Assembly: GCA_001724265.1 (NCBI GenBank)
Contig: MEDY01000131.1
Coordinates: 1 to 64,000, forward strand
Length of the DNA stretch: 64,000 bases
Reading direction: 5' to 3'
From: Rhizaria sp. SCN 62-66
Lineage: Eukaryota
Shown here piece by piece: positions 23,110 to 48,800 of the stretch. The translations under genes and the position numbers were made by a program. Below the pieces are notes generated by a model that was not told the DNA's origin, did no database searches, and saw nothing but the letters and a program-made list of their open reading frames with translations. Numbering within the stretch: position 1 is the stretch's first letter; each line of letters starts with the position of its first letter.

Positions 23110-26100
23110 TTAACGTCGTCCCGGTTTGAGCTCACGCACCACGATACGCCGCCACTCCTCGCTCTCACCGGCCACGTTACCGTCAGCAGCGCGCGCTTTG
23201 CCGACGAAGTGCTTCAGTGCTGTGAGGGCCCACGCAGCACCAGAGCTGAGATTGTCACGCGTTGTGATTGAACCAACCACAAGTACACCACTCTTCCCGT
23301 TGTTATTACCCTTATCCCAGTCATCAGCGAAGAGCAAGGGCGGTGTAAAGTCGCACGGGGTCGTCAGCAGCAACTTATGTTTCGCTGCGTCCTCGCCATC
23401 TTGCGCAGTGTTGATTCCGCTGGCGTTGTCTGTGATGACGCCCGAGTTGGCGCGGGCAGCGTCGGTCTGTGCACGAGGACCCGCTGCGTCTTGCAGCACG
23501 TCAGCAGCAAGAGAACACGTGAAAGCGATAAAAGTAAAGCCGTCTCCGCTACCACCAGTGGAGTTGCCGCTGTCGTTGTTGTTGCTTGGGCCAGTGCGTG
23601 TCGCGAGGGCTGAGTTAAGACTGTGCTCATGCAACGCGCTAGGCGGATTAAGTTCCGCAAAGCCCGCCGCATCAGGCACCACACTATTCTCATTGCTCGC
23701 ACTCACATTGGTATTAGACTTGCCATTGTTGTTCGTGGTTCCGATAAACAGGTGGTCGAAAATGATTTGTGGGTCTTTCGCACGGCAGGCGCCGACCCAG
23801 TCAGCGTAACAACTGCGCAGCGCCGGCACAGAGGCGCGCGTACGGAAGATGATGTAACGCGTGGTCACGTTCACGTGGGGCGACTCTGACACGCGCATCG
23901 ATAAACCGGAAGAAAGCACTGCAGCGTGGGTTGCGCGTAATGCCGCCGCAGCGGTCTTTGCGCGCTCCAATAGCTCCTCAGTACTGACGTTCTCGTCGCC
24001 AGCCCCGCCACTGTTGCTACCATCACTCTTCTCCTGTCCAGGGCCACCAGCGTTGTTGTTGTCGTTGCCCCACGCGTCAGCGGCAAGGATCGCCTCCTCC
24101 AAAGTTAAGCCGCGCCTGCGGGCCTCTGCGCGCGCGGCCACCCGTGCGTACCCGACACGCATGGCGTCGGTGCGCTGGAAATGCCGTGTGTACGCAAAGC
24201 TGTGCGCGCCGCCAGCCGCAATCTCGCAGATATCCTCGCCCAAGAGGTCTTCTAAGAGGACTGGCAGAGGGGCGTGGTCGAGTGAGCCGGTGCCGAGCTG
24301 CCCGCGGTCGCCCTGCCCCCAGGCGAACACCTCTTTGTCGCGGGACAGCGCGAGACAGTGATGAGAGCCCGCAGCCACCTGGGTGATGCGCACGCCGCGG
24401 CGCGTAAGAGCGTCGACGGGCTTAGCGAGGGCGGTGTTGTGGGCCGGGAGGTGGCCAAGCTGGCCGTGGCTGCCGAACCCAAACGTGTACACTAGAATGA
24501 AACAATGCGGATGTAAACTGATATGGTTAGATTTCGTTGTGAAGCGTCGTATGATCAACACTTAAGTTGTGATACACAGGTGAGAACAGTTTACACCACG
24601 CGTATCATCAATTTTATCAAAAAACATACCTGTTCCGGACTTGGTGAGGCAGACTGTGTGTCGGTCGCCGCAGACCACCTGAATGACACAGTCATCAGCC
24701 CTCGCAACTGCCAGCACGGCGTTGGAGCCGTCGGCAGCAGAGCTATGGTTGTCGTCAGAAGCGGCCGCGGCGAGTTCACTGATATCGACAGCGAAACCCC
24801 CCCATTGCGCCTGCGTCTGCGCCTGCGTCTGTGAGTGCGCCTGCGAGTGCTGTGAAAGGGACGGCGGCTGCGACGGCGACTGCGGCTGCTGCAGAGGCAG
24901 TCCACGCGCGTCCGCGCCCGCGCTCGCCAGGCCAAGCACCGGCGACGGCAGCGACGCGTGGCTGTACTGGCCGGTGCCAAGCTGGCCGTAGTCGCCCTGG
25001 CCCCAGGCCCAGAGACCGCGACCGTTGCTTGAGACGGCAACGGTGTGGAACGCACCTGCTGCAACGGATTTCACGAAAACCTACAATACATTAGAGCACA
25101 AAAACAAGAAGATCTCGAAAACAATATGAATAAGGTGTGATGTTTTGATATACGCATACAAATTCAGTTTTACACGGAATAATAGCTTGCTCGTGCGCAT
25201 ATGTGTACCTTTTGGCGGATGAGCTCATCGACACGACGCGGCTCCGACACATCCTCACCAGAGGCTCCGTGCCCCAGCTGACCAAAGTTATTATGCCGGC
25301 CGCCGCCACCAAAGGTGAAAACCTCGCCCAGCGCAGTGCCGATGACGGTGTGCCACGTGCCACAGGCGACTGAAACGACGCGGCGCAGCGCGGCCGGAAC
25401 GGGTAAGAGAGCGCCCTGTAGCGTGGGCAGCGGAACAGAAGACCGGGACAGAGCCGTGACAACCTGATAGTTGCCGCCGCCGGCAACGAAGGCTGCGACA
25501 GCGCTCGCGTCAGTCGTGCTTTTGTCGCCGTTGCTGCTGGCTAAGCGTTTATGCGCGCTTTCGACGGCCCAGTGATAGGGATTGTACCGCGTCACCGCGT
25601 TGCTACTGCTGGGTACAACGGAGGCAGCGATGGCGGCTTCGACTGCAGCGGCCGCAGCAGCAGCCTGCGCAGCCGCAGCCGCACGCGATTGCGCCACAAA
25701 CACATCGCCAATCGCAGCGTCGCTGCCACCGTAACCAAGACGAGATGATGACGAGGATGCGGCGTGGTCCGGGGTGCCCGCGCCGGAAGCTAAGCCGCTG
25801 CGGCCTAACTTCCCGTGCAGCGTGCCACCCCAAGTGACGATATCGCCAGAGTCCAGCAGCGCGACGTTATGCAAATCGCTTACCGCAATGCCAACCACGC
25901 GCAAACCCTCCGCGATCCCGCTAGCGTGGGCGGTCACGTTGGACGTTGAGGAAAGCGCTGGGAGTTGCTTGAATGCAGACTGGTCGGTGGTTAACGGCAG
26001 GCCGAGCACGCCTGAGCGCCAGGAACCGGCTGCGTGGACCGCGCCGTCGGTCGTAAGCGCGACAGTGTGTGCGAGACCGGCGCCCAGTTGGGCCACGGGT

Positions 26101-27368: not shown

Positions 27369-27898
27369 GTGTCTTCAGCTCAACGGCTACTTTTTCCAAC
27401 AAGGGAGTTCGCAGGTGAGATGTGCGAGTAGAAAGACCTAAAAAGAAAAGAAGAGCAGATATAAGCGGGGGTTAGTGGAGCTTGGCGGACTTTCAAATTG
27501 ACGATGGGGTTATGTCACACCAGCGGTGTTTTCGAAGTCGCTTTGGCTTGCTCTTTGTCTCTGCTGTCTTCTCCACGAGTGACCGTGGGCAGCGGTATTG
27601 GTGACTGTGAGCAGCAGACGGAGGCAAAGACAGCATCTGACTGGCCAGAATCTCGGAAATCAGCCCCGAACTTGTGCCCTAACGCACGTCATGCTCGACT
27701 CAGGGGCCTATATTATGAAATATTCATGTCGTTTTTCATCCTTATCTAAACTCCCTGTCTTACACGGTGCCGTCTCTGCTGTGTTCTCACTGTCTCTTTG
27801 TCGCACTCCTGCCCGTCTTTTCGCCCCACATTTCCGTCCCTTGCCTCCGCTGTACTCTGCATCATCCCTGCTTCACTACACGCCATCAGAGGGCTTGC

Positions 27899-30800
27899 AT
27901 GGCGTATCTGGCGCCCTCGACTCTCGGGCGAAAGGGCTCTTTTCTGCGCCACACGCCTCCGGTCCATTTCGGCGACCAAATCCGTCTCTGGGTTGTGTCA
28001 ATCGCCAACACCGCAGTCTCCGACGAGCACGGTGGCTACCTCTCCGTCAACCGCGAGGCGTCCTCGGGCGCGCGTTTCTCCGTCTCCCCGATCAACCAGC
28101 TCCACGCCACGCTCGACGAGCCCTGTACGTTTACCGTGCGCCACCCCACGCTGGCCGACGTCCGCGCCCCCGTGCGCTACGGCGAGCTCGTGCACCTTTC
28201 GCTCGACGCCGATCCCGACGGCGTATGGGCGCCCCTGCTCTCCTCGGGGCTCCTCGGCCCGCGCCACCGCGGGTCGGGCAACGCGGTGGAGATTCTGTTC
28301 CGTTTCCACGCCGGCGTCGAGCCCAAGGATCCTTCCCAGCCTTCAACCCCGCTGCCCGATCTCATTGCAGGGAACGGCGACAACGAGACCAACCCCGACG
28401 CCGCCGCGGCCGCCGCGACCGCCGCTGACCCTGACTCGGTCACCTCGCTCATTATTGACGACCTTGTCGACACCCCCGTCCTCATCGGCGCTCGTAATGT
28501 CCTCCTGGAGGCCGTCCCCGTGCCCGTCCCTGTCGCCAAGCCCGACGCGTCTTCGGCCTCCGGCGCCGTCGTCTCCACCTCGGCCTCGGCGTCGCAGGCC
28601 ACGGCCCTGGCCGCGCTCCCGCTGCGCCGCCGCCTCCTCCGCGCCTTCCAGCCTTTATCAGCGTCTACTTTAGGCGCGGGCGTGTCTATGGACGGCCAGG
28701 GCGTGTTGTTGGGTTTCGGCGTTGCCCTGCCCGCCGCGCGCGTCGCTACAGTCACCCTCGTCCACGGACTCGTCGCCGTCGACGCCTCGCTGTACCCGAG
28801 CCCCGGCAACTCGGATGCCGCCGCCGTGGCCGCTGCTGCCGCCGCCGGTGCCGCCTCTAAGGCCCGTCGCCGCGGCTCCGTCGATGGCGTGGTCAAGGCC
28901 GCCTCCGCCTCGGCCGCCGCCGCCGCCGCCGCCGCGAGCTCCAACCCTGCCGCATTTGGCTCGGCCGCGGGCGCCGCGCCCGGCGAGCGCCGCCTGCGCC
29001 GCATCAACGTCGAGTGCTGGGACCGCGACTTCGTTCTCGCGCGCGGCACCATGCTGCCGCCGTCGACCGCACTCGTCGTGACCGTGCCCGGTGCCGGCAC
29101 CGTGCGCATCCCCGCCTCGTACCTCCCGCCGCCGCCGAGCAACCTCCCGCTGCTCATCTCCGGCGCCGCCAGTGACCGCGGGTTCCCGCAGTACTACCAG
29201 CGGTCGTTCCCGCTCGAGGCGCCCTCGGTGCCGCCGCCCGTCGCCACTGCTGACGGCTCCGTCGCCGCGCCGCCGCAGTCCCCCTCGGTCGGCGTCGCCG
29301 GCACAAGCGGCGACGGGAATAGCCGCGTCGTGGGCTCGATCACGATCCGGTGGACGCGCGTCCCCGTCGCGCCCGTTGCTGTCGACTACAGTCGCCGGAG
29401 TAATATTTCTAACAAGGACTGTGGCGCCAAGGACTCCAAGGACTCCGTCGTCGCCGCTAAGGACGGTTCTGTGTCGCCGTGCGCCCCCGCGTCGACGGCG
29501 TCGTGGCTGGCCTTCATCATCGCCTGCGCGGCCGTGGGCGCCTGTGCTGCCGCGGCCTGGGACCACCCCCACGTGCGCGCCCTCGCCCGCCGCGTCGCGA
29601 CCTCGACCCCCATGCTCACGGTCTCCGGTGCAGACCTCGGCGTGCCCTCAGTCAGAGGCACCGCGCAAGTGCCCGATCTCGCCGCGCTCGTCCGCGCCGT
29701 GGCGGCGTACTTCAACGACGAGCAGAGCATCGCCGACTTCGTCTTCACGCTGTCCTCCGTCTCGATCCCCGCGGTGCTGCTCGTCCTCGTGTCGCTGGTC
29801 GTGAACCGTGCCACAGTGGCGGCGACCCGCCGTGGCGCGACGGTCAGCAAGACCCCGGCGCCGCTGTTCCTGCTGCGCGTCTCCGCGCCGGTCGACCAGG
29901 AAGGCAACCCGCTGTTCGAGCCCATCGACCCTGTGCCCGGTCTCATCACCGCTGAGGCGCAGGCCGAGCTCCGCGAGCGCCAGCTCGCCGCTCTCAACAA
30001 CGACACCAACAACACCGCTCAGGGCACGCTGGAGGGCGGGAATAGCGTCGGCGAGGCCGGTCTGTCGCTGGAGAGACCCCCCGCTGTCTCCGGCATGGCC
30101 CCCATCATCACCAAGGCACCTTCGGTCGGCGCCGGCCCCCACGGACACGGCAACGGCAACAGCAATAGCAACGTGGCCGGCTGCTGCGGGAGCCTGCCCC
30201 ACAGCAACAGCAACCCCCGCGGCTCGGGCTCCATGCCCGGCGTTGAGCGCCGCATGTCCAGTCTGCTCGGCACGTCGATGGCGCCCGCGTTTGAGGTGCC
30301 CACGGCGGCTGAGTATGGCCGGCTCGATGAGCCCCGGCTCATGGTGGCGCAGATCCTTCACGGTATCCGCATGTCCTCGCAAAAGGCGCAGGTACGTTCT
30401 TCAGGCATATCTCCGCTATATCTCACTGTTTAAATACGATATTATAATCGAGTATGTATAGTTGTGTATGGTATGTTTATGGTTGGTTTTTTTTTTATTA
30501 TAAGAGGCTCATACCTTGTCTTGCTTTTATCGTGTTTTGTAACGGACCAACTTTTACGACTTAACTTTAGGAGGCGCTCGCGGAGGGCAAGTACGGCGCG
30601 GACGGCATGCGCGGTCCCGACGACGTCAAGCACACTGTGCCTGCGCTCAACCAGTGGCTCTGCGGTGAGGTCCAGGTCAAGGACTACGCTCCTGCGCTCT
30701 TTGCCAAGATCCGCAACGCACACAACATCAACCAGGTACGGCAAGACCTTAAACTGGCATAGATATCTCGCATATCACTACTAAAGTCTAAGTGGATATT

Positions 30801-32437
30801 CGGTGTTTATATATAAGTACTGTAATTACTATTTTTATCACTCATATATCTCCTCTCACAATCTCTTTTTTGCCAACTCTGTGTTGTTTCCCTTCTTGAT
30901 GCTTAGACTGAGTTTGCGAAGAGTTGGACGTACTCTGCTTCGACCATGCCCGCGCTGGCCCTCGGCGCCGGCCGTTCCGGCTCTCTTTTCCTCAACTCTG
31001 CCGACGGCAAGTTCCTGTTCAAGACCATCACTAAGGACGACATGGCGACTTTGCGCCTTATCCTGCGTGACTACACCACGTACGTGTGCACACAGCCGTC
31101 GCGTCTGATGAAGTTTGTCGGTCTTCACCGTTTCCGCTTCGCCAAGACGGGCGAGACGCGCTACGTCGTTGTCGCTATGAACATCTTCAACATCCCGCGT
31201 CCCCTCGCAGAGCAAGGACTTGCGGTGACCGCCAAGTTTGACCTTAAGGGCCGCAAGCCCAAGAAGGCTCCCGAGCTGCGCCCGCTGGAGCCCAACCGCG
31301 GCGTCTTCAAGGACAACCAGGTACGGCACATTCGCATGTATATCATAACAAAAACTAAAACATATGCTATTTCATGTATGCTTCCTTTAGCATGCCAAGT
31401 TTTTGTCTCAAAATGTGTTCCTATTGTGCTTATATCGTTGCTACTTTGTGTTTTGTTGCTCGTTTTCTTATTCTAGGTTGCCCGTGTGTTCGAGGCGTCC
31501 AGCGCGGTGCGCGACACGCTGATTAACACGATGAAGGCCGACGTTGCGTTCCTCCGTGACCACGATCTCATCGACTACTCGCTTCTTGTCGGTCTCGTCG
31601 AGCCCCAGGTACGTCGTAAGATCACTATTTTCGCGTGAACAGCTAAATATTGATTCGCCTAATCACACATCTTCACGGATCTGTTTTGTTTATCTTGATG
31701 ATTCAATGCAATACTATGATTGATACCTGCACATTTCCGTTCTATTTACGCTCACATCAAGTCTCTCCTTGCGATTGCTTTTTATCACCGCCCAGGCCCC
31801 CGCGCCTGCTGCCGGCGCCGCCGCTGCCCCCGTGTCGCTGTCTGCTCTTTCCACCATCCGCGAGGTTGCCATCCACACCACCGCCGAGGACTTCGCCACC
31901 CCCAGTGCGTCCCCCGTTGTCCCGGCCCCCGAAGGTCTCCCAGAGATTTACACTGTCGGCATCATCGACTTCCTGTCCCGGTACCAGACGTTCAAGAAGC
32001 AAACGGCGCACTTCTTCAAATCGTTCTTGTGGACTGATGATGAGTTGTCGACGGTCAACAGTGAGTTTTACTCCCGCCGCTTCGAGAACTACCTCGACGT
32101 CATCTTCCCTCCCGCCGACGCCGCCGTCGTCTCCGGCTCCGATGCGGCCGCGCTGCAGCGCTTCGGCATCACCACGGCCACAGTCGCGAAGAGCGGCGCC
32201 GGCGCTCTGGTGCGGACGGCGTCAGGCCGTGCGGTCGTCGTGCTGCCCGAGGGCGTCAAGTCGTCCCCGGCGATGCCCCGTCTGCCCACCCCTGGGACCA
32301 CCGCCGCTGCCGGGTGCGCTGGTGCTGGCGCGGCGACACCGCGCGCGGCGGAGAGGAATCTCGCGGCCGTGACCGCGGCTGCGCAACAGGAGCAGCAGAA
32401 CGGGCTGCCGCCTAAGGCCCCCGTCAAGCAGCAGTAA
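27899..32437 (+). CDS. phosphatidylinositol-phosphate kinase (PIP5K/PIP4K family) with long N-terminal extension and two hydrophobic segments (~1281 aa)
   Basis: Exons 27899-30391, 30571-30735, 30907-31320, 31477-31608, 31796-32437; four phase-0 GTACG introns. Motifs VKDYAPALFAKIR, GAGRSGSLF...DGKFLFKTI, VVVAMNIF, KFDLKGR, VFKD, LIDYSLLVG, YTVGIIDFL, STVNSEFYSRRF; stop TAA. Confidence 0.92.
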
Positions 32438-33224: not shown

Positions 33225-36200
33225 TTACTCTAGTCCGGGAGTGCTCCTGGGCGTGCCATAGAGTGACCGTTGCCCCGCCACAGCTGCTGCCGCGGCCGCC
33301 GTCACTGCGGCCTGCTGCTGCTGAAGCTGATGTTGACGGCGGGCAGGCACGATGATGATTGCTTCCGGGCCGGTCTCATACGTGCTCACAGTCATATCGT
33401 TGTTACTTTGCACGGCAACGCGACTAAAAGCGCCGTGATTATAGTTGTTTGCGCTTCCACTACCGAAGAGCTAATCGCAAATCGACTTGTTCACAGCAGC
33501 ACCAGCGCTCTCGCTCTCATTGGCAGCATTGCCAGCTGCAGTCTCAAGCCCAGGAACCGCATTGCTGTGATCCCCATCATCATCATTGTTGCCGTCATCG
33601 CAGTAGCTGTCGTGACGCTGGGCAGTGGCAGCGGCATCAGTGCCGTGGCCAACGCCCGCGTCGCCCCACGTGTCATCATCAGCGTACAAGGCCGCGATCG
33701 TGATCGCGTCGGCCCCAGTGTCGTCCGCGCTCTCGACATGAATATCACGCTCCTGCTGCTCAACTTGCTGCCGTTGGTGCTGCGCGTCGTGAGCGTGGTG
33801 CGAGGAGTGTGAATGCTGTGGGGCGGTATTGTTCGTCGCGTTGAGCGCGCTGTCGTACACAGTGCACATCGGCGCCGCCGCAGAGTCTGCGAACGCTGAC
33901 TGCGCAAAGATCGAATGCACCGTGTTGATAAAACCAAACAAGCTCTCGCCGCCGTTATGCGCATCATCAGCCGTCGACACAGCCGCAGACTGAGCGTCAG
34001 CCTCAGGGTTTGCCCAGTGACTGCGCACATTGCCGTCGCCATTGCTGCCGTCGCCGTCAGCGTCGGCGTTATTGTCGGTCACAGTAAAGCCAAATGTGAC
34101 CTCACACACACCCTCGTCCTCAACCTCATGCGATTGACTGTGGGCAGTTCCAGGCGCAAAGCCCTGGTTGCCATGAGACTGCGCCTGCGACTGTGCGCGC
34201 GAGAGCGGAACGGGGATGCTGAGCCGCTGGCACAGCCGCGCCAGCGCGCGCCGGCCCGTCGGCGACAGCATCTGGTTGCCGTTGCTCACTCTCGCACTCG
34301 CATCGTTTGTGTTGTTTACATTGGCGTTGTACGCGGGTGTGCGGGCGAAAGCCGGAGTCGTCGCCCTTGAGGCAAATGCCGCAGGGCCAGGCGAGGGGGC
34401 CACGGTCGGCAGCGGCAGCGGCAGCGGTGAACCAAACGGAAGCGGCTGCTGCGTGTGCGCGCTATAAGTGCCACGCGTGGGAGTCTGATGACTGTACGCA
34501 TTTGCATTGCTTTGGCCGTGGCTCTGAGGGCTGCTCGCGCTTGCGCCGCCGCTAGAGTAGTTGAAGATCGACGGAAGCGCGGGTGCCGGTGCAGGCGCGT
34601 ACGTGGGCGCACCGTTTCCGCGAACAGCGGTTGAGCTCGGAGAGACGGCGTCCCCGTTAGGCTTCGACGGCGAAGTGGCCGTCCCCGGTGTGGCGAGCAC
34701 CCGGGAGGCGATGTAAGTGGGCGACCGCGGCGGCTGCGTCTGCCGAGGCGGCGAGCTGAACTGGCCCGCCGAGACGGCACTTATACGCGGTGCCGCACTA
34801 GGGGTAGTTATACTCACTGGGGTACTTACACTCGCAACGCTGGCATTTGCGGTGGGGTTAGTACGGACCGCAACAGGAGAGGAAAAAAGGCCAAACGGCA
34901 CGGGCTTCATGTCAGTGCGCGTTTGCTGCTGTGTCTTCGAGTCGACGTAACACTGCGCCTGGCCCAGCCCCAGTCCCAGTCCCAGGCTCTGACTCTGGCT
35001 GTGGACGTGACCCTGACTGGCAGGGTGACCGTGAGACGCGGCGTGACCGTGGGCGGGGCCCGGTGACTGGAACAGCATGTACGGGTGGTGGCTGAACTCG
35101 GGCGACGCAGACGCGGACGACGCGGACGCTGATGTCGAGGCGACAGCAGCAGCGGGTGTGGACGCAGATGCAAAAGCGGGGCTACTGGGACTGAGATCGC
35201 TCTGCTGTTGCTGATGTTGCTGTTGCTGGTATTGATAAGGACGCTGAGACTGCGGAGTCTGCTGTTGCTGCTGCTGTTGCTGTTGCAACAGAGACAACGG
35301 CGAGCCGGTACCAGGAGCAAACGGGGTAGCATGCATGCCGCTGCTGCTGATACTGCTAATGGAGCTAGCAACGTTCGCATTCGAGCCGCGTTGAGGCGAG
35401 AATGAGACGTTACTACTGATCACAGTCGCCCCATCAACGCTATGTCCGTTACTGTTGTTGTTGTCGCTGCCGCGCACTCGGCGCGCCGGCTGCGGCTGTC
35501 GCACCGACAGCGGCGACCCCCGTTGCAGCCCGTCGCTCACCGCGATTGCACTGGCGCTCGTGGACGCCACTGTAGCTGCAGGACCAGAGAGAGGGCCGGA
35601 TACAGGACCGGAGACTGGCAGTGCGGCGGACACAGAGGCGGGAATGATGGGAAGAGGGATTGTGGAGAGATATCCAAGCACGGGGTGCGCGGAAGGGTTC
35701 TGCGCTGGGTGAGGGGACTGTGGGGTGTAAGTACCCCCGACAACCGTGGCGGACGCATACGCACCCTTAGACGCCGCCGCCGACGACGACAAGGATGCAT
35801 TGATGGGAGTGTTGTTCTTCATGATGGGCCTCGGCGACATGTACGTGAAGCTACTGCGGGGCTTGTACGGAGTATTCGACTCTGCGTTATAAGAGCCCTG
35901 CTGCTGCTGCTGCTGCTGCTGTGCTGTTGCAGAGTTGGCGCCGTGACTCGGCGACCCCACACTCGTGTTGAACGCGCTGACGTCGTGGTGCGCAGTCGAA
36001 ATGCTCGCGTTGGTGGTGGTATTGTTGTTGCTTTTGTTGCTGCGGGAAGTCGCAGCGCTCATCAGTGCGGGTGTCATCCCAGTCGCGCCATGCACAGCAG
36101 CCGCATTGGCAGCATCTGCAGCAGCAGCAAAAGCAGAAGCACTGGCATGAGGCACAGTGACAGAGGCAGTGAACAGTCTACTGGCGCTCGTGTTGAGCCC

Positions 36201-36336
36201 GCGGTCACTGCGCTGCCGCTGCGCACGGTCACGCTCACGGCCACGCTCACGAGCGGCACGGTCCTCGTCGCGTTGGCGCACCATTTCCTGTTCTTGGCGC
36301 AAAACACGCTCATACTTCTGCTCACGGTCACCATCA

Positions 36337-36382
<46 letters not shown>

Positions 36383-38390
36383 GCTGCTCCCTTTGCATCG
36401 CGGCAACGGCGGCAGCGACGGCGGCTGCGGCGGCCTCGGCTGCGGCGGACGCGACCAGCGATTGCAGCTCTCTCTTGGTCACCACAGTCACATCGTCACC
36501 CTGCGAATCGCCGATAGCACTGCCCTGGTCGTCGGTGGCGTCGAGGTCGCTGCTGTCGGTGAACATGGGCTTCGACTGCAGCGCCTGCTGCTTTGCCGCC
36601 GCAGAGCGATCGTGAGCAGGCGTGCGCTGACTGTGCGGACCGGCCTTCGAGTGACTGTGCACAGCATTAACAGCATTTGCAGCATTGGCAGCGGAAGCAG
36701 CATTTGCAGCATGAGCAACAGCGACAGCGGCAGTGGGGCGTGTGGCGACGGGAGGGCGCGTGCCAGCCAGCACAGCGGTGATCTCGAGGGGGGGCAATAT
36801 CGCACTCGCAGTCACGTCTACAGTCTGCGTCTCATCGACGATGCCGACATCGCCGTTGTCATCGTCGTTGTAGCTTATGCCGACAGCACTGCTGAGGGGA
36901 GTGGCGATCGCGTTCGCGCTCTTATACCCACCACCACCAAACAACGCAGCCGAGGACGACGGCTGTGTAGGATTCACCTTGCTGACAGAGCTGTTGACGT
37001 TCACAGTAGGCACACGCTTCGGCGGCAGCGGCGGCGGCACCGTAACGCCAACACCGCGCACAGAGCCAGGAGCATGCTGATACTGAGCGGAAGCAGGCAC
37101 TGCAGCAGACGCGGACGCGGCCTTGCTCAGCGCGTTCGCGAGCGCTGCCGTGACAGGCGTCTGTGACGGCAGCGGCGCGGCAGCCGCGGCGGCGGCGCGC
37201 GCGATGGTGAGGTCGGCCTCGGCGATGCAGCGCTGGACGCTGGCGCAGAGGGAAGACACTTGCGACGCCAGCGGGGAGCCGAACACGCGGCTCGTGCTCG
37301 TAGCAGCGGCGGCGGGCGCGGGGGTCGCGGGGAGAGCAGCGATGTGACTTGCCTTCACAGTGGCAGTGGCAGTGTTAATGTCGGTGTGTGCGCTGCTAGG
37401 GTACGAGGTGTCGCACTGCGGCAGCGGCAGGGCGAACGTACTATCGTCGAGGCCGTCGTTCTCTGCACTCGCGGAAGCAGCAACCACGGCAACAGGGGCA
37501 GTTGCCGTGCTGTTGTTGCTCAGATGCACCGCCGGAGCAGTGCTTGAGAACTTTTGCTGCTGAAGCTGTTCATGTTGGAGCTGTTGAGCGCGCTTTTGCT
37601 GCACGTAGGCCTGGTATTCGCGCGCAGCAATCTCGTCCTCTTCGCTATCTTCATCCTCGTCCTCGTCGCCGTTGTTGTTATTGTTGTTGAAGTTGTTGTT
37701 GTGCGCGTTCGTGTTGTTCGTGTTGTTGTGCGGGTCTTCGTCGTCAAAGTATCCTTCTGTGACCAGAAACGACTCAAAGTCAGCCGCAGCAGCCTCCTCC
37801 GCGTCCCGGCCCCTGTAAGCACTGCCCGCAGCAGTAATCGCGGCGTTAACGTGCGCGTTGGAGCTGGCCGTGCGTGTGCGCGTGCGAGCAGATGCAGGTG
37901 TCGGCGCTGAAAATAACGGCAGCTGCGCCGTGTCATTCAACGCGCTCGCACTCGCACTCACACTCGCACTGCTTGTAGATGCAGGCGCAGCCGCAGCGGC
38001 AGCGGGCGGCGGTGGAGGCGGGCTGTCGCGGATCAGCGTTGCAACAGCGAACTGATCCATCGCAGCGCGCGCGCGCGTCGAGTGGTTCACAGCGGAGAAC
38101 GCACTTGAGGCGTCTTTGCCGGCAAACTCGTGCACGATGTACGCACCGCCAGGGTGCAAAAACGCAAAGACAGAGAGATCATAGACGATGCCATCGATCG
38201 CCACGAGCAGCGGCTGCGCGGCAGCGAGGTCGTCGTTGCCCAAGTCTGCAAGCCAGCTGCGCAGTGTGGCCGGAGGCGGCGGGCTGTCGTGGGCCGCGAA
38301 ATGGGCGTCAGCGAGGCCAGAGATGGCCGAGACGCGGGCGTGCGCGGAGGACTCAGTGAGTTGGTAGCCGCGCAGGGTCGACCACAGCAT
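33225..38390 (-). CDS. cytochrome b5-like heme-binding domain protein with long disordered tail; 1721 aa if two in-frame TAGs (36369-36371, 33471-33473) are sense codons
   Basis: LLVAIDGIVYDLSVFAFLHPGGAYIVHEFAGKDASSAFSAVNHS (HPGG and the second His are present). ORFs 36369..38390, 33471..36302 and 33225..33413 are all in one frame, separated only by TAG codons; TAA at 33225-33227 is followed by an AT-rich spacer. Confidence 0.8.
36339..36386 (-). repeat. polyglutamine trinucleotide tract CAG5-TAG-CAG10
   Basis: The plus strand reads (CTG)10 CTA (CTG)5. Confidence 0.95.
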
Positions 38391-39065
38391 CGGCGGCAGG
38401 GCACGCGCTGGGCGTGTGGGGTTGGAGTAGAAGATAACAAGGGCGATGGGTGAGAATGAGGCACTATAACTAAATAGGCGATTATATCAGTAAAGGGAGT
38501 CGTCGGTAGGGATATGGTCAAGTTAGAAGGCACACGCAAAGACTGCTTCCGTTATACGTACGCTCTTGTGGAGTTGACATTGCAGGGAAGGCGAGCAGAC
38601 GCACTCGGATGCGCTGGATGGAAGAAGGTGGCGGTGCGAAAGAGTGTGGTTCCTACGAGCAAGTGTAGCAGTACACACAGGTAGATTTAAGAATTGAAAT
38701 TGAAAGTTAGAGTATTTTAACTAGTACTGTTGTCAAATATGCCAGTACACGCGACTTTGACGACGGTAAGCTGTCGTGGTTTATATTTCAATTCAAACTC
38801 AAATCGAGCGCCAGCCATGAGCCAGCCGACCGCCACCGAGGTGCATCCAGTGTAATGTACTATTTATAAAGTTGTCAAAAGGCACAAAGATCCCATCAAC
38901 GACACAAGCCGGATGAGAAAGCAAACAAAATAATATATTTATTGATCATATATATCCATCACGCACTCCGATATGCATTTACAGCAGAATATCCGGTGCC
39001 ACTGGCCCTGCGTACGTTTCTTGAGACATCAAAGCGACTTAACCCTTATACCGCAAGCGCAGCAC

Positions 39066-42000
39066 TCAAAACTCCTCCGCGGCGGCAGCCTGGTGCTTCG
39101 CGAGCTCAAGCAGCATCGCCTCGTCGAAATAGCTCGCGACGGCCACATCCTCCGACAGCCCCTTGCGGCGGCGCGTCTTCAGCATGAAATCCCTCGCCAG
39201 CGCCTGTGTCGGTGCGACTTCCAGTGGCTTAAGCGCGATGCTCTTGTCCAGCGGGTCCCCGGGCACGACGCCCCAGTGATCGAACGTGCTCTGACAGAAC
39301 GCCATGCCGTGCGTGAGCGTGCGCAGGTCCGTCTCAAACCCGAACGACTCGATCTGCGGCATCGTCGCCTCGGTCACCACCAGCGGCGTGCCGGGCAACG
39401 GCCGAGTGCTCAGCACGCGCCCGCGGCGGTAGCCCAGGATGCGCTGCGCCTCGCCCGCACAGTCGGCCGGCGAGATGATCTGCGTCAACAGCACTGGCTC
39501 CATCAGCCGCGGCGTTGCCAGCAGGAACGTCGAAAATGTCAACCGCTGCATCGTCGGCATCACCTGCGGGCGCGATCGCAGCACGGGCTCTGCGGCGACC
39601 GCGGCGTCGACGAGTTTCACGCGGACGCCGCGCACGGGCTCGCCGCACAGTGGACCCTCACCCATCGCCCACTGGAAGCCGTCGACGAGCGCGTCGCGCA
39701 CGCCGCCGAGCGCTTTCTTGTCGACTTCACTCGGCAAAGTGTCGTCGCAGAGGATGTTCGGCCCGTCGGCGTCGGGGCCAAACGCCCACACGGAGCGCGC
39801 GGCCAGCGTGTCCCACTGGTACTTGTTCTGGAAAAACTCCTGCAGCGCGCGCGCGTTGCCCGGCTCGCCGGGACTACACCGCACCGCACCGAGCTCGATG
39901 TCCTCCGCGAGTCCCTTGTCGAGCGGCTCGGCCACGGCGGCAAACCGGCTCGCGCGGTTGCGCGTCTCGGCAAAGCACTTGACGGCGGAGGACTCGGCCA
40001 CGGACTCTGTGAAGCGGACGCCAGGGTCCGAAACCTTGACCTCGATTTTGGCGTAGTTGTTGCGCAGATCGTGCAGCACGCTCTCCATCTCCAGCTCACC
40101 GCTGGCAAAGATGACGTGCTCGCCCGACTCGAGCGTCTTGGTCTCGACCAGCGGGTAACACTTGCTCACCTTGCGCAGCCCTTCGAGCAGCTTCGGCAGC
40201 TCCGCGGGGACGAGCGGCTCGACAGCGACACGCATGCCCGCAGTCGTCGCGCACTGGAGAGGACGGAAGACGCGGACGTCGGAGCCCGCGGTGTCGAGCG
40301 CGACGACTGTGGCAGTCTTGCCCACGCCCGCGTCGATGCCCTCGACAAGAACCCAGTTGCCTGCGGTTGCACGGTTCACCTCGACGCGGTACCGGCCAGC
40401 CTGAAACAAAAATATCGATATATCCCATATTATAAAAAGAATTAGAAAATTGAAATCAAGATATAATTGTAGATTGCTAAATACAACCGAAAATTCAAAA
40501 TACACACCATTTCTATCTCGAATAAATACATATTTACTCATGTTCGTACCTGGTAGACCCAGAGGCGGCCGACCTCCTGCACGGTCATATCTTCCTCATC
40601 CGCGGGGGAATAACGCGGACCGAGCACGCGCACGCGGTCGCCCACGCGCACCGTGCCGGACATAACGCGGCAGAACGTGTCAAAGCGTGCGCCGTCACCG
40701 CGCGGAAAGGACTTGAGCGCTTGCAGCACTAGCACGGCCTTGGGGTCGCACGCAAGCATTCCCACAGCGGCCGGGGATGTAAGTGCGCCCGTGTAGCCGC
40801 GGCGCACGCGCTCAGCGGCCGCGGCAACGGGCGTGGGAACGCACCGCGTGAGAGCCTCGCACAGTGCGGCGCACGAATCCGAGAAGTACCTCCGCAGCAC
40901 GAGGCGCAGCAGCGGCTTGACATCGAGCTTGAGCTCTGCCTTGGACAGCGCGACGCCCAGCTCACCGCACAGCGCCGCAAGCGCGGGAAGGTCCGCCGCG
41001 AGCGTGTGCGCGTAGATCTTGTACAGCGGTTCGAGCACAAGCTGGATGAACGTGCGCGGCGCCGTCGCCGTCTCGGGCTTGGTGGCGAAACTGCGGTCGC
41101 TGTTCATGTACACGTTGCCCCACAGACGCAGCGCGAGGCGCTCGGGCGGGAACGCCGCCGCGGCGCCGTGCGCAGTGGCGTAGTAGCGCGCGAAGGACTG
41201 TACTGAAAAAACCCAGCCGTGGAGCGCGGAAGCGAAAAGCACGTTGCCCTTCTCCGGGGACAGGCGTTGCGCCACGGGGTCGCCACCGGCGTCGATGACG
41301 GCCGCGTTGACCTCGGCCAGCACGCGCGCAAGCTTGTGGTACGCGTCGGTGGGTGGGAGACGCAGCTCGAGAATGAGCCGGTCGATCTTGGTGATGCAGA
41401 GCACGAGTGGGAGCCCGTCACGCAGAGCCTGCGCGATGACTTTTTCTGTACCCATGACTACGCCCTCGACGGCGTCGACAACGAGAAGCACGCCGTCCGC
41501 GAGCCGCAGCGCCGCGGTGGCCTCGGCGGAGAGATTGACGTGGCCCGGTGCGTCGGCGAGATTCAGCAGGTGCGATTTCCCGCTGAGATCGGGGATTACT
41601 AAGGAAATCGGCGCCGTTTTGAGCGACATCTCGCGCGCCTGCTCATCCGCGCGCGAGTCCGTAAAGCGCGCAGGACGGTCGAGCGGCCAGTCGCGGAAGT
41701 GCGTGTCCTGCACAAGCACGTCGAGCAGCGACGTCTTACCGTGGCCCAAGTGGCCGACAACGGCGACGTTGCGCGTGAAGCGCGGGTGGTCCATGAGCCC
41801 CGTGAGGTACTTGAGGTCGAACGACGTGCGCGGGGGCGCGGAGTCCGCGGCCGCGTCGGCGTAGAGCGAGCGGCCCTTGACCGGGTCGATGATCGGCTTG
41901 TCCAGCGGCTGTGTGTCCTCTTCCTGAACGAGGACTTCGACGTTGGGGTAGACTTCCTCCGCGGAGGCGTAGTACTCCTTGTCCTCAGAGAGCACCACGG

Positions 42001-42581
42001 AGCGGCCGCGCGTGGGGTCGAAATCCACCACAGCGCGGTCCAGAGACATCGTAGGCGCCGCGCGGGGCTCGTTTTCGGCCTCGGCGGCGTCGGTGTCGTC
42101 GGTCATGGCAGCGGCCGCGGCGGGGGCGGCAGGGGCCTCGACGGAGGTGCCGTAGAGGTCGTCCTGGGGGGCGAAATAAGGCGCGAGGTGGATCGTTAGC
42201 AATAAAAAGAGACGCACATATGCGTAAGGTCATATACAAAGTCTATTCAAGCATGGGCGAGTGTGGGCAGGAAAGGGCGCAGATCTCGCGCAGTGAACAG
42301 TGCGGGGGAGTGGCGGCTTTGTTCAAGCTCGCGTTTCGGGGAGCAGACGTACCTCGTCATCATCCTCGTAGCCGTAGCCGGCGCCAGCGGTGTCGGCTTC
42401 CTCATCAAGGTCGGGGCCAATGTAGTTGCCGAACTGTGAAGGACAGAACAGATGCAGGAACGAGAGCAGGGTGGAGTGAGCAAGTTATGCGGGGAAAGTG
42501 AGGTCAGGATGGGTCTCTGATTGGGGTCATCATTGGGTTTGGATAAGAAATACGTACCTCGTCATAAAGTTCAGAGTCCAT
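39066..42581 (-). CDS. EFTUD2: U5 snRNP 116-kDa GTPase EFTUD2/Snu114 (~1017 aa)
   Basis: Exons 42581-42558 (MDSELYDE), 42433-42353 (FGNYIGPDL...), 42163-40550, 40400-39066; introns 42557-42434, 42352-42164, 40549-40401. Motifs VVLSEDKEYY, QEEDTQPL, GHLGHGKT, DAPGHVN, TKIDRLILELRLPP, WDTLAARSVWAFGPD, ESFGFETDLR, KTRRRKGL; stop TGA. Confidence 0.97.
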
Positions 42582-42857: not shown

Positions 42858-45800
42858 TTAGATTCCGAACCCGAAGAAGGGCCTCGCGCCGCCTCCATTG
42901 GTCCCTGCCGCAGCATCCGCAGCACTGTGGTTAGTCGCGTCTGCCCCCGCCCCACCGGCGTCCGGCGCGTCTCTCAACAGCACGTAGTCGAGCACTTCGC
43001 GGACCACCTCGTCGCCCTCGGCCTCGAGCGCAGCGATCACACCCTCGCCGGCCTCGAGCAGCCTCTGTGACTGCAGTGCGCCGCCATTGCCGCTGCCGTG
43101 GTTGCCGCGGTTGTCGTTGTTGTTGTTGCTCGCGCCGGTGCCCGAGGCGTGCGCGCCCGCGGCAGCCGTAGCGCTGACAACGAGCCTGTCGCGCGTGAAC
43201 GCGATCTGCCACGTCGCGACGCCGGGCTGCGCCTCCATCGCCGCGGCACCGAATCCGCCAGCGGGGCTCACATTGCTCGCGCCGGCGACAGCGGCGACGG
43301 CCGCGGCGGACGAGGCGGCGGCGGACGCGGCGGCCTCCTCGCCCGCGCTCGCGCCGACGGCCCGGGCCAGCTCCACCGCCGCGGCGGCCGCGGCGGAGGC
43401 GGCGGCGGCCGCAGCGGCCTCCGCATCTGCGCGCGCGCGCGCGGCGGCCTCCCGGTCAGACGTCGGCGGCGGCGGCGGCTGTTCATTGTCGCCGCCGGCG
43501 TCCAGGTCGAACCCGGTGTTGGCGAGCCCCGTGGCGTCAATCTCAACCAGGATCGCGCTGCAGCCGATCTCGACGACGTCGCCATGGCGCAGACGGCGGC
43601 GCAGGGCCTGTTCGCCGTTGACGCGAGAGCCTGAGGTGGAGCCGAGGTCGATGAACCACAGCTCGCGCCCGCGCCATTCGACGCGAGCGTGCGAGCGGGA
43701 CACGCGGCCGTCCTCCAGCACGAAGATGTTCGCTAAATAGAGTTAAATAGTTAAAACAAGATATTACGCATGCGAGTTAGTGCGACCGTTGACAAAAAAA
43801 ATATTACAATTGAGACATCTCGATATTCGTTCAGTTCATTACAACTCATTAATGTCTCTTAGAGCACTCATTTACGTACATTTCTCGCGGCCTAGAGTGA
43901 CGAGCGGCATCCCACGCGTCATGACAAAGACCTGCGTCAAGTGCGGCACGTCGACCTGTCGCGCAGTAAGCCGCACCCGTGCCAACGGGCCAAGCGGCTC
44001 GTGTGGCAGCGGTCGCAGTCCCCCGCGCACAGGCTCGCTGTTGAAGGCGTGGTCCGCCGCCGCCGCTGCCGCACTGGCACTGGCGCCGGCGTTGGCGCTA
44101 AGGCTGCTGGCGTTCAAGCCACCGCGCGCCGTCGACGGGAACGCGTCGTCGTCGTCCTGATCGCTCGCTAGCGGTTGCTGCTGCTGTTGCTGCTGCTGAG
44201 GCTGCGCGCCGTTCGCGCCGCTGGTGCCGGAGTAAGACGGGATAGCGTCCGAGAGAGGGGAGACGGGGGACCACGTCTGCGCAGGCGTGCCTGCGGGCGG
44301 GGCGGTGTTCAAAGTCAAGCCGCCGATCCCGCCAGCAGCGCGAGACGGCGTCACAGTCACGGGCTGCTGCTGTTGTTGCTGTTGCTGTTGCTGCTGAGCG
44401 GCGAAGAGAGCGGAGAGGACAGCGCCGGCCGTGGCAGTGTTGGCGCAGTAGCCGAACAGAGCCACAGCGGCCCGGGCGCGCGCGTCACCAATTGCAGGAC
44501 CAAAAAAGTCTTGGTCGACCGAGTCGTACTCGTCGTCGTCCTGGCCGCCGCAACTGTGCACCCCGAAACCGCCACTGCCAACACTCCCAACGGCACCTCC
44601 AAAGTTGCCCCAGAAGGTCGGCATCTTGGGCGCCTGCGTCGCTGCCATAGTCGCACCTGCGTTGCCGTCGGTGCTGCTGGCTGAGTCTGAGACCGTCATG
44701 AAGTCAGACGCCGACGCCGCCGCGTGGTCGCCACTCCCGCCGCCGCCGCCGCCGCCGCTGCGGTGGTGTCCGCTCACTGTGCTCCCGCCGCCTCCGCCGT
44801 GCGCGCCGGGGGACGGCGTGGCCGGTGGCGTCGCGAAGGGCGTCGACACCGCGCTCGCGAGCTGCGCCGCGCCCGCGCGCAGCAGCGGCGTAAGCGCAAC
44901 AGGACTCGCCACAGCGGCCGTCACGCCGGACTCTGACTCGGGGTTCGAGTCGGCGGTGGGGCTTGTCACAGCACTCCGGTCAGACGCCGTTGACGCCGCG
45001 GCCGCCATCACGGTCACCGTCACTGCCGTCGTCGCAGTGGCCGTGACGGCGGTGGCGGTGGCGATGCCTGTCGTGCGTGTAGCTGCTGTTGGCGTTGCGA
45101 ACACACGGCCACTGGACCCGGGCGCCGGGGTCAGAGTCAGCACTCCACCAACTGCACCGCTGGGCTTGCCGTTGTTGCCGCTGCTGCTAGCCTCTGAAGG
45201 CGCCGCTGAACTGGCGCCGGCGGCCGTGGCGGCTGCAGCGGCGGCCGCAGCGGCGTAGGTCGCGGTGGGGTTGACAGCGGCGCCGAGCCACGCGACGAAC
45301 TGCCGTTGTAGCCGCATAAACACGATGTCGGCGACGGGGATGAACATGCTCGTGTGCACATGCGGCGCGTGTGCATACGGCTGCAACGAGCACAAACACT
45401 CCGCGTTGGCGTCGTCGTCGTCGTACGCGTCGTCGTCGCAGCCATAACTGCCGCCGCCGCAGTCGCGGTCACCGTCAGCGCTCTTACGCTCGCTGCCCCC
45501 GCCCCTATGACTGCTGTTGTTGTTGTTGTTGCTGTTGTTGTTGGCGTACTGCCACTGGCGCTGTTGCAGCTGCTGGAAGCGCGTCACGAGCGCGGGCGGC
45601 GGCCGGTACAGCGGGTTCGCCTGCCCTGCCGCGGTGGCTTGTGCTGCGAGCGCGGCGCGGATCTGCGCCCGCAGCCGCGCCACAACACGCGGCGGCAGCC
45701 CCCACAGCGCGGTGCGCGCGGCCGGCGCGACGAACTCGCTGTACAGCGCCACAGCCGCCGCGGTCAGGTCCGCGGCGCCCGCGCGGCGGGAGGTGAAGTC

Positions 45801-48800
45801 GCGGTGCAGTGCGTAAAAGCGCAGCTCGGAGAAGAAGTTCGACGACAACGAGTAGATCGCCAATGCGTCGTCGCGCGTCACGGTCACCGGCAGCGTAATA
45901 GCCGGCTTCGAGTCGAGCGCATTCAAGCCAGCGACAACGAGAGCGGTGGAGCTCGAACCGTCGCTCTCAGGCGACACAGCAGTTACGGCGGCGGCGGCGT
46001 TTGATGCCGATTGTGGCAGCCAGACCGCCCGCCAGCGCTGCGTGGCCTGGTCAGTCGCTTTGAAGGGCCCGTTGTTGCTGACGATGATGAGATAGCGCAC
46101 AAAACGCGTCAGCAGCGGCTGCAGCGACACGCCCACGCCCGCGCCGGCGCCGCGCGCTGAGGCACCACCGGCGCCGCCGCCAGTGGCCGCGGCCGCCGCC
46201 GCCAGCGCGCGCGCGAGTGAGACCAGTGAGCCCTGCGGCTTCCACGCGCAACCCTTACTTAGCGCAGCCTGCGGACCCGGAATGGCAGGTGCGATGGGAG
46301 AGCCCTGTGCATGCGCGCTGCTGGCCGCCAAGGACGACAGCGGCGACGGAGACAGTGGGGACTGCGACGCCGACGCCATCTGCTGCTGCTGTTGCTGCTG
46401 TTGGTGGTGTAGCGACGCCGCGGCTGCGACTGTGAAGATCGCAGTCGCGGGACTCAGCAGCGCCGCCGCAGCCGCCGCCGAGGCCGTGGCAGCCGCAGCG
46501 GCGGCGGAAGACAACGACGACGTCGCCGCCGGATGGGTCAGCGCGGGCGTCAGCAGCGACTCAAACGTTGCGTACGCATCCATCACAGTCGCCACGCGTG
46601 CCAGTACTTCGTCCGGCGTCGGCGCGGTCGCAGCAGACGCCGCCGCGGCGGCGCCGGCAGCAGCACCACTGCCCGCGGCGCCTGCGCCAGTCAAAGGCGC
46701 GGGGCCGGCGAGGGTGTTGGCGGCCGCGGCGGGCGCGGCGGCGCGGTAGGCTCCCAGTCCGCAGTGCGCGCACTCGACGGGGACAGGGCCCGCGCGCGAG
46801 GCGGCGACGGCGCGCACGGCGCTGCGGGCGGCGCGGCGCGCGCAGCGGCACGGGCGAGCGGCGGCGCCGGCGGGGCGCGCGTCGCCGGGGCGGTAATGGC
46901 GCTCGGGCCGGTCGGGGCGCGGCGATAGCGCAGCGGCGGACAGATCAGAGTCGGGATCGCGCTGAGGCTGCGGCTGCAGCGGCTGCGGGGGCGGGGAGAC
47001 GATGAGGCCGCGGCGTGCGTCGGCGGCCGCGGCAGAGAGGCGCGAGGCCTGCATGTACCCGGCAGCGGAGCGCTCTTGCGGGGACAGCGGCGAGCGCGGC
47101 GACAAAGGCCCGCTGTAGGCGAGACTGTGGTGCGACCCTGCATGGAGCCGGCTGAACTCGGTGTCGGACTCGGTGTATGTTGACGTCGTCGTGGTCATCG
47201 TCGTCGACGTGGTTCTACGGCTGATGACGGTACCGTCACTATCGTCGCCGTCGGCAGCAGCGTCGAGTCTGTCGCTCTCGCCGTCGTCATCGTCGTCGTC
47301 GCTGTCGTCGCTGCTGTCAGATTCGCTGAGGCTAGAATCATCGCCGCCGCCGCCGCGGCCGCTGCCACACGCTGCGAAGTGACCGTGTGCGCCCCAACCG
47401 TCACCCACCGCACCATGGCAACAGCCACCGCCGGTGTTGCCGCCGGCCGGGATCAGCGAGGCGCTACCGCGGCCCGACGCGGGCGGGAGGGCCCAATCAC
47501 GCGCCGCCGCAGCCGCCGCGGCCGCCGAGGCTGCGTACACAGGTGGCATCGCCACCAGTGCGAGCATCGCGAAGATCGGTAGCGTCGGCGCTCTTTCCGC
47601 AGCAGCAGCATCGTCAGTGATAAAGCGGCTCACACTGGCCGGGCCTGCACTGCTGAGCTGAGACAGCGCAGGAGGGCTAGAGCCCTGAGGCAGTGCCAAG
47701 GTCTGCCCCGCGACCTGCGTTGCCGCAGCAGCCCTGCTCCCGCTGCCGCCTTGACCGCCACTGCTGTTGTTGTTGTTGTTGTTGTTGCTTTGTGTGCGAC
47801 TCTGCCTGTGGTCGAGGCTGTGGCTGAGGTCCGGTGCGAGCCAGCTGCGCACGATGCTGCCGATGCGCGCCAGCGGGCCGGCCGCCGCCGCCGCGGCCTG
47901 CGAGCTGGCCTCAGCCGCCGCGGCCGCCGCGGTCAGCGCCGCCGCGGCGCGCGTGCGATCAAACATGGGCAGCACGCGCGCGCGCGTCGCCGCAGTGGTC
48001 GCGGCGAAGGCGGCAGCGGCCACACGCCGGCGCTGGCGCCAGTCGACACCGCGCACGGCGTCCGGGCAAACAAAGCCGGGCACAGGCGCGGCCGCCACGG
48101 GGTCGGACCGCAAAAATGGGTCCAGTAGCGTAATGCGGCGACTCTTCAGCTGCTGCTGTTGACTGGTGTTGTTGCCGCTGCCACCGATATTGATTGCCAG
48201 TGACTCTGGCAGCGGCGACAGCGCATTTGGGGGACTCGCTGCGTTATCATAGCACAAAGCCTGCACGTTGGAGTTCATGTTAGTGATTGGGTTGTGGCCG
48301 TCAGTGTGGAGCGACACCCACACGTCAGTGCCGGCGGCCGCAGCGGGCACGACCGCGCCCGACTCGCGCGCCGCGGCGGCCACAGCGGGCGGCGGCTCGA
48401 CCGAGAGAAACGGCGCGTGTCCGCAAGCCAGAAGCGGCGGGATCGGGACGCTGGGCGCCGCGGAGGCAATGCGTGCCGCGGTCTCAGTGAGCACGGACAC
48501 CCACTCTGCCAACGCAACCTAAACAGCGCGAGTAAACCAAAAAAAAATAACAAAATAAAGAGCGAATGAGAGTAGTACAACAAATGAGTTTATGGTTTGG
48601 ACCGATACAGAGCTGATGAGAACGAATATTCCTAAATAACGTTAGTTCGATGCGTACCTGGTGTTTTGCGCGGAAGACCCACGCGCGCAGCGGCGTGCGC
48701 ACAGTGAATACTAGCTCTCCTCGCGCCAGTCCGCGCGCGTCGAGCTCCACGGCGGCGTGCCGCAGCAGCGCGAAGTCGGCGGGCGTCTTGGCGCGCGACG

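Follow-up and report, generated by a model that had tools for sequence, protein, structure and literature searches.

The first 64,000 nucleotides of contig MEDY01000131.1 (GenBank assembly GCA_001724265.1, deposited as Rhizaria sp. SCN 62-66; this whole stretch is called the window below) contain a gene on the minus strand, g8, in which a TAG triplet interrupts a run of CAG codons. Open frames, codon statistics, and gene ends across the window suggest that TAG is a sense codon, most likely for Gln, and that TAA (the main terminator) and TGA are the stops in an uncultured, GC-rich, intron-bearing eukaryote; we put the probability of this reading at roughly 0.65. Translation of TAG at the sites described here is, taken by itself, very probable. 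The original prediction placed the triplet at 36371 to 36369 within a tract at 36386 to 36339, and both the sequence and the coordinates are borne out by a direct reading of the minus strand: AGG GAG (CAG)5 TAG (CAG)10 CGT GAT, with the tract (36339 to 36386) in frame with the g8 open reading frame (ORF) and the TAG (36369 to 36371) as codon 674 counted from the ATG at 38390. Between a TGA at 38489 and this TAG, the frame is open for 705 codons; another 965 open codons, where about 960 had been predicted, follow up to a second in-frame TAG at 33473. Off-frame stop densities in the window's coding sequence are 2.0% and 3.9% per codon, from which the chance of open runs of 705 and 965 codons is ≤7 × 10−7 and ≤3 × 10−9, respectively.

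A census of the window points the same way. The 11 gene models comprise 17,810 in-frame codons, of which four are TAG and none is TAA or TGA; off frame, each of the three stops is common. The four TAGs (36371, 33473, 9326, and 58373) are spread over three of the genes; relative to 506 and 168 codons of the ordinary Gln types, they make up ∼0.6% (4 of 4 + 506 + 168). The models were built from frames free of TAA and TGA; what carries information is that no TAA or TGA joins two long ORFs anywhere but in introns. Ten genes end in the window, eight of them at TAA (1539, 7826, 11065, 22841, 23112, 32435, 33227, and 42860), two at TGA (8093 and 39068), and none at TAG. The TGA at 39068 terminates the EFTUD2/Snu114 gene (39066 to 42229, minus strand; two exons with an intron at ∼40549 to 40401, delimited by Pfam matches and homolog C termini), our reference for TGA termination and for taxonomy, and coincides with the C termini of five homologs. 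For the TAA ends, the evidence consists of convergent gene pairs, drops in GC content, and negative coding scores after the stop; alignments of the Snf7 gene (g1) with PDB sequences gave no TAA end by homology, stopping at residue 207 to 242 of 294. TAAs at 43874, 30431, and 22409 were rejected as gene ends, since they lie within introns and the true ends are at 42860, 32435, and 22841. Similarly, a pair of ORFs running from 20788 to 11065 was dismissed as a case of an in-frame TAA or TAG, because what separates the two is an AT-rich intron of 168 nt lying within the coding sequence of an amine-oxidase domain.

The coding signal of g8 does not end at either TAG. Because the coding score holds past 33473 and GC content collapses only after 33227, we conclude that g8 is most likely one gene of ∼1,721 codons, running from the ATG at 38390 to the TAA at 33227 to 33225 (33225 to 38390, minus strand) and containing two TAGs. 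The second TAG (33471 to 33473) is followed by 81 further open codons, up to the TAA. Their score is +0.22 in the frame of g8 and −0.37 and −0.40 in the other two frames, compared with 0.31 ± 0.13 for the body of g8; the 80 codons after 10 real terminators score −0.50 to −0.17 in frame, a comparison that omits two listed TAAs later placed in introns. Directly after the TAA (33225 to 33227), GC content drops to 0.25 and the coding score turns negative. Frame 0 likewise scores best on both sides of TAG 36371. Toward its N terminus, g8 encodes a cytochrome b5-like heme/steroid-binding domain (38034 to 38219, minus strand; Pfam PF00173, E = 2.2 × 10−13, residues 90 to 151 of the ORF starting at 38486). 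Outside this domain, the sequence is of low complexity, and homolog searches returned no relatives of g8 alignable across 36371 or 33473, the only match being g8's own C-terminal piece, P0122.

Conservation across a TAG is seen in g3, a gene of 649 codons with a membrane-like product (8091 to 10043, minus strand), terminated by the TGA at 8093. Its in-frame TAG (9326 to 9324) joins 240 and 410 open codons in the same frame. An exhaustive HMMER search with the g3 product, TAG being read as Gln, returned g3's own two pieces and a single relative, P0130 (435 aa; E = 4 × 10−19), which is collinear with g3 residues 32 to 134 (40%), 265 to 282, and 442 to 532 (42%), so that aligned blocks flank the TAG, which is residue 240. 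Since P0130 aligns on both sides and the first in-frame ATG past the TAG is 183 codons on, beyond the block at 265 to 282, a single polypeptide across the TAG is the conserved state. The TAG position itself falls in a linker that does not align with P0130. The third gene, g11 (55001 to 64000, plus strand), is an open frame of >2,999 codons that leaves the window; its TAG (58373 to 58375) is preceded by 1,132 open codons and followed by at least 1,875. Over 54977 to 64000, g11 has a third-position GC content of 0.50 to 0.58, versus 0.65 to 0.83 in the other genes, and its frame-specific scores are weak though ∼3,000 codons are open.

These data bear on two readings in which TAG keeps its meaning as a stop. 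According to the first, the TAGs are true premature stops in truncated or decaying genes, and the downstream ORFs are untranslated relics. With the codon usage of the window, 57 to 61% of one-step nonsense changes would produce TAG, CAG to TAG being the commonest, and a g8 product cut to its N-terminal 673 aa would keep the only recognizable domain. But three of the 11 genes would have to have been hit by four nonsense codons without any frameshift, TAA, or TGA; sense-like codon statistics are retained downstream, the downstream half of g3 is conserved with P0130, and the stops are fixed in all recorded assemblies, even where the repeat length differs. We therefore regard decay as very unlikely. 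In the second reading, the code is standard or ambiguous: TAG ends other genes and is read through here by leaky near-cognate decoding or by a weak suppressor. The rarity of TAG (3 of 11 genes), the location of all four sites in poorly conserved or low-complexity segments, and the CAG codon directly after two of them would fit such leakiness, and a sample of 10 terminators is too small to rule out genes that end at TAG. Yet the same three genes could make the conserved segments that follow their TAGs, for example the C-terminal block of g3, only by readthrough in the middle of their ORFs, and TAG occurs at none of the 10 gene ends, which makes leaky decoding of an ordinary stop quite unlikely.

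The TAG that interrupts the g8 repeat recurs across recorded contigs. An exact copy of the 673-aa product, from the ATG at 38390 to …REQQQQQ, is recorded from four contigs (sources, Logan and ENA), and a 68,415-bp contig carries a 672-aa variant that differs only in its end, …REQQQQ, from which it follows that the number of CAG units before TAG 36371 varies between assemblies (five versus four) and the stop is constant. For g8, g3, and g11, pieces ending at the TAGs are recorded on four (plus the one variant), five, and three contigs, respectively, the g3 and g11 pieces being N-terminal and the latter 1,124 aa long. No unbroken g8 product across TAG 36371 was found among recorded proteins of 919 to 2,925 aa; only P0122, called on three contigs, was. 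In four sequencing runs (X3, X4, X5, and X6), Logan contigs break at the CAG repeat, and 36327 to 36398 was masked in the comparison, so that base 36371 is seen only indirectly; no contig bridging the tract was found in these runs, nor was a credible spliced joint. Thus, an assembly error at TAG 36371 is countered indirectly, by the recurrence of the stop across contigs. TAG 33473, on the other hand, is covered by independent contigs from X3 and X4, which belong to two other studies; these contigs agree with the window at this TAG. Contigs from a poly-A metatranscriptome (X5) that match 34562 to 34788, 35141 to 35628, and 36043 to 36321, downstream of TAG 36371 in the sense of g8, have no differences from the window; they show neither strand nor transcription, the X5 library may hold DNA, and they were not used as evidence.

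An artifact or a misreading of the site would take one of three forms: an error in sequencing or assembling the repeat, a plus-strand gene in which the triplet is the Leu codon CTA, or U-to-C editing of the mRNA. The masking of the tract in the read comparison, which leaves the base without an independent view, speaks for the first, and the second can point to a plus-strand ORF of 586 codons (35406 to 37166) that reads the tract as (CTG)10 CTA (CTG)5, with CTA in frame. The exact product ending at the stop on four contigs and in one variant, together with the unchanged TAG 33473 in the contigs of other studies, argues against error. As to the strand, a codon score that contrasts sense with antisense, with 13 other exons as its training set, is +0.368 per codon for the minus strand of g8, and +0.329 in the part opposite the plus-strand ORF (training genes, 0.23 to 0.40), and the minus-strand ORF outreaches its counterpart by 640 and 440 codons on the two sides. 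Codon statistics thus place the sense on the minus strand; the poly-Leu ORF was rejected as a real gene and is a shadow ORF. We consider an artifact or misreading of any of these kinds extremely unlikely.

Nor do the TAGs belong to introns. The statement that neither an AT-rich intron nor a GTACG donor lies near TAG 36371 proved correct: GC content in 60-nt stretches around it is 0.57 to 0.73, versus 0.25 to 0.40 in 11 verified introns, and the sole upstream candidate for a GT-type donor would make a 294-nt "intron" with a GC content of 0.67. TAGs 9326, 33473, and 58373 were rejected as acceptor AGs, the candidate introns having GC contents of 0.48 to 0.67; two candidates with GTACG donors upstream of TAG 33473 (217 and 388 nt) would also put what follows into another frame, which the coding signal contradicts.

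Given that TAG is a sense codon, its assignment to Gln is probable, judging from sequence context. The original prediction held that TAG is sense in one long gene and that the poly-CAG tract is the best clue to the amino acid. The first part is well supported and has been extended by three more in-frame TAGs, by the lack of in-frame TAA and TGA and of TAG ends, and by homolog and coding signals across TAGs. The second is weaker than claimed, since poly-Gln runs in the window are also interrupted by one-step nonsynonymous codons, AAG (Lys) in g4 and CAT (His) in g8, and recent CAG-to-TAG mutations, too, would lie in Gln-rich sequence. Three of the four TAGs adjoin a Gln codon. The fraction of Gln codons in the window's genes that adjoin another Gln is 0.318; for other residues, it is 0.02 to 0.10. 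From this neighbor statistic, the likelihood is 0.088 for Gln and 0.0018 for Leu, a ratio of ∼48, and the flat-prior posterior for Gln is 0.81 with all four TAGs and 0.50 without the tract site.

TAG could instead be a sense codon for another amino acid, most plausibly Leu, the meaning that it has in the rhizarian exLh and in a single lineage of phyllopharyngean ciliates, in which case the tract would read Q5-L-Q10. Codes with UAG as Leu and with UAA and UGA as stops are documented in reports on other protists (PMC5304391; PMC11687900), poly-Gln interruptions by Lys and His are present in the window, and no TAG lies in a conserved column. We nonetheless think a Leu assignment unlikely, because the Gln adjacency of three of the four TAGs is ∼48 times likelier under Gln and because a single C-to-T transition in a pure (CAG)n run is most simply silent.

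Several observations weigh against TAG as a sense codon for Gln. The sample is only 64 kb, a tRNA scan of the window detected no tRNA gene and an Rfam scan no match, and the window is without an eRF1 gene. If TAG made up 15 to 35% of stops, its absence from 10 gene ends would have a probability of 0.2 to 0.013, and under random nonsense mutation, four of four stops would be TAG with a probability of 0.11 to 0.14; neither figure decides the matter by itself. The frame signal is not sharp everywhere: over the first 80 codons past TAG 36371, frame 1 nearly equals frame 0 (0.144 versus 0.162), and at TAG 58373 the signal is weak, frame 0 scoring −0.116 versus −0.132 for frame 2 upstream and +0.02 downstream. 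The C-terminal 1,046 codons of g8 are without homologs in the searches made. None of the four TAGs stands on a conserved alignment column, the g3 TAG being in the unaligned linker and g8 being without homologs, and for this reason, Gln is something that we infer. The adjacency to Gln would be expected equally from recent CAG-to-TAG mutations, whatever TAG means. Finally, TAG use is 30 to 50 times below that of the UAG = Gln ciliates described in PMC11687900, which fits leaky or occasional decoding as well.

If TAG does encode Gln, the TAG in the tract would be a silent C-to-T change of a CAG codon. The putative decoder is a Gln-charged tRNA that has the anticodon CUA and descends from tRNA-Gln(CUG), and its partner change would be an eRF1 that no longer recognizes UAG efficiently. 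UAA would stay a stop because a CUA anticodon cannot read it; conversely, with UAA as the main stop, the decoder should carry CUA. The sparse use of TAG, at ∼0.6% of Gln codons, suggests that the codon is young or inefficiently decoded.

Codes in which both UAA and UAG specify Gln (NCBI table 6) are found in many ciliates, hexamitid diplomonads, some ulvophytes, and Amoeboaphelidium; there, a one-step change of a Gln anticodon turns stop into Gln, and TAA is sense as well, which leaves TGA as the sole stop. We rejected a table 6 code for the window, where TAA never occurs in frame and serves as the terminator of eight of the 10 genes. An aphelid with a code of the Amoeboaphelidium type was rejected because TAA is the main stop and because a tree of EFTUD2, described below, places the organism outside the opisthokonts. 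An ambiguous code of the Condylostoma or Blastocrithidia type, in which all stops double as sense codons, is at odds with the absence of in-frame TGA and TAA from all 17,810 codons. A multigene contig of at least 64 kb at ∼60% GC is unlike ciliate macronuclear DNA.

Nuclear codes in which UAG changed meaning and UAA was kept as a stop have been known since 2017, when the first was described (PMC5304391), and the reports cited here place such UAG-only codes in Iotanema, the rhizarian exLh, and three lineages of phyllopharyngean ciliates (PMC5304391, PMC11687900). In Iotanema spirale, in which UAG is Gln, genes were reported to end 104 times at UAA, 15 times at UGA, and never at UAG, and 204 in-frame UAGs were counted in 126 genes (Panek et al. 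2017, PMC5304391). The window resembles this code in that only UAG is in frame, UAA ends greatly outnumber UGA ends, with no UAG among the 10 ends counted (8, 2, and 0 here), and Gln is favored; the predicted mechanism, tRNA-Gln(CUA) together with an altered eRF1, is also alike, the same reasoning about the CUA anticodon and eRF1 being given for Iotanema (PMC5304391). Unlike Iotanema, an anaerobic fornicate from gecko feces, the window organism is seen in metagenomes of wastewater and bioreactors, and nearly every one of its genes contains GT-AG introns of 129 to 187 nt. Its UAG usage differs, with four in 11 very long genes compared with 204 in 126 genes, and so does the basis of the assignment, which in Iotanema was conserved columns (PMC5304391) and here is context. 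We saw no close sequence relation to Iotanema: the best EFTUD2 match sourced from EukProt is 47% identical, in a database in which the presence of Iotanema was not established.

The phyllopharyngean ciliates Hartmannula sinica and Trochilia petrani use UAG for Gln, and metagenome-assembled genomes (MAGs) of TARA ciliates use it for Leu (McGowan et al. 2024, PMC11687900). In the phyllopharyngeans, as in the code proposed for the window, the reassignment concerns only UAG, and genes end preferentially at UAA; in those with UAG = Gln, UAG is reported to make up 18.5 to 31.8% of Gln codons, and ∼80% of genes carry it (PMC11687900). The rhizarian exLh, of the Sainouroidea, reads UAG as Leu, with gene ends given as 56 UAA, 15 UGA, and 0 UAG and with 384 UAGs in 71 genes (PMC5304391). 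Like the window organism on the reading favored here, exLh is a nonciliate protist with UAG as sense and with UAA and UGA as sole terminators; it differs in the amino acid and in its high usage, whereas the neighbor statistic here favors Gln over Leu by about 48 to 1. No named rhizarian sequences are among the EFTUD2 matches listed. Full-text literature searches, with paper supplements outside their scope, brought to light no wastewater or activated-sludge protist in which UAG is reported as reassigned.

A further UAG-only case, in a GC-rich, intron-rich protist that is not a ciliate, would be an independent datum on the separability of UAG and UAA, and the very low TAG usage might show an early stage of reassignment. 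Our tentative extension, which is possible but rather doubtful, is that the window comes from a eukaryotic lineage that had not been sampled before, belongs neither to the opisthokonts nor to the green plants, and has only begun to capture UAG: TAG would have been lost as a terminator and would be reemerging as Gln by CAG-to-TAG changes, mainly in Gln-rich disordered segments. If this were true, the organism would offer a natural snapshot of UAG decoupling from UAA in the evolution of the code; as a further UAG-only case, it would provide an accessible environmental source in which to look for the tRNA and eRF1 changes. There is also a consequence for annotation. Gene callers using the standard code have stored g8, g3, and g11 split at their TAGs (as P0123/P0124 and P0122, P0125 and P0129, and P0126, respectively), and the annotation of such eukaryotic metagenome contigs is therefore systematically wrong.

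As to the organism, the segment 33400 to 43399 was found, with at least half of the sampled words, in four runs from three metagenome studies of bioreactors or wastewater dated 2015 to 2025, one of which may be the source of the window, and long pieces from two of these studies match the window with at most one differing letter. The N-terminal part of EFTUD2 has one relative that is 70% identical; all other matches listed are at most 52% identical. A scan of metagenome contigs with EFTUD2 and 10-kb flanks matched 87 stretches, of which six were confirmed, all 29 to 41% identical, and found neither the organism nor its 70% relative. In an EFTUD2 tree of 36 rows, the window sequence and this relative form a long branch that groups with environmental sequences (SH-aLRT support, 96); the opisthokonts (98) and the green plants (100) form clades of their own that do not include it. 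Because this is a single-gene tree from a quick search and both of these rows are of aberrant composition, the organism is best called unplaced. One X5 contig differs from the EFTUD2 exon at 40014 to 40301 at 24 positions, mostly spaced 3 nt apart, and the X5 contig that matches 38856 to 39337 with a single difference has a cluster of 10 differences at 39465 to 39538; these patterns indicate that a related strain or species co-occurs in that sludge.

The window is ∼60% GC with AT-rich islands and carries eukaryotic genes by Pfam: EFTUD2/Snu114, an LSD1-like gene with SWIRM and amine-oxidase domains, CAP-Gly/RCC1, PIP5K, Snf7, and a giant gene ending in FHA. From split domains and frame changes, we fixed 11 introns, six on the minus strand (17168 to 17335, 40401 to 40549, 48519 to 48657, 24492 to 24629, 25081 to 25209, and 43733 to 43879) and five on the plus strand (22327 to 22509, 30392 to 30570, 30736 to 30906, 31321 to 31476, and 31609 to 31795). 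They are uniform, 129 to 187 nt long with a GC content of 0.25 to 0.40 within exons of 0.6 to 0.75, and contain stops in nearly all frames. The donor is (C)AG|GTACG in nine of the 11, with one GTATG and one GTACA, and the acceptors are YAG, mostly TAG or CAG. This donor sometimes yields an in-frame TAA that mimics a gene end, as in GTACGTAA at 43879, and two further TAGs, at 30904 and 31474, supply the AG of intron acceptors and are not codons.

Long, low-complexity reading frames recur among the neighboring genes. The giant gene (42858 to 53751, minus strand) has ∼3,500 codons in three exons, is mostly of low complexity, lacks Pfam matches save for the final FHA domain (PF00498, E = 6 × 10−12), and terminates in a tandem TAA TGA. 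The LSD1-like gene (11063 to 20788, minus strand) combines a weak SWIRM match with an amine-oxidase domain split by an intron and reaches ∼3,200 codons through low-complexity inserts. On the plus strand, at 27719 to 32437, an orphan ORF of 904 codons (27719 to 30391) is the first exon of a gene with at least five exons, the later ones encoding the PIP5K domain.

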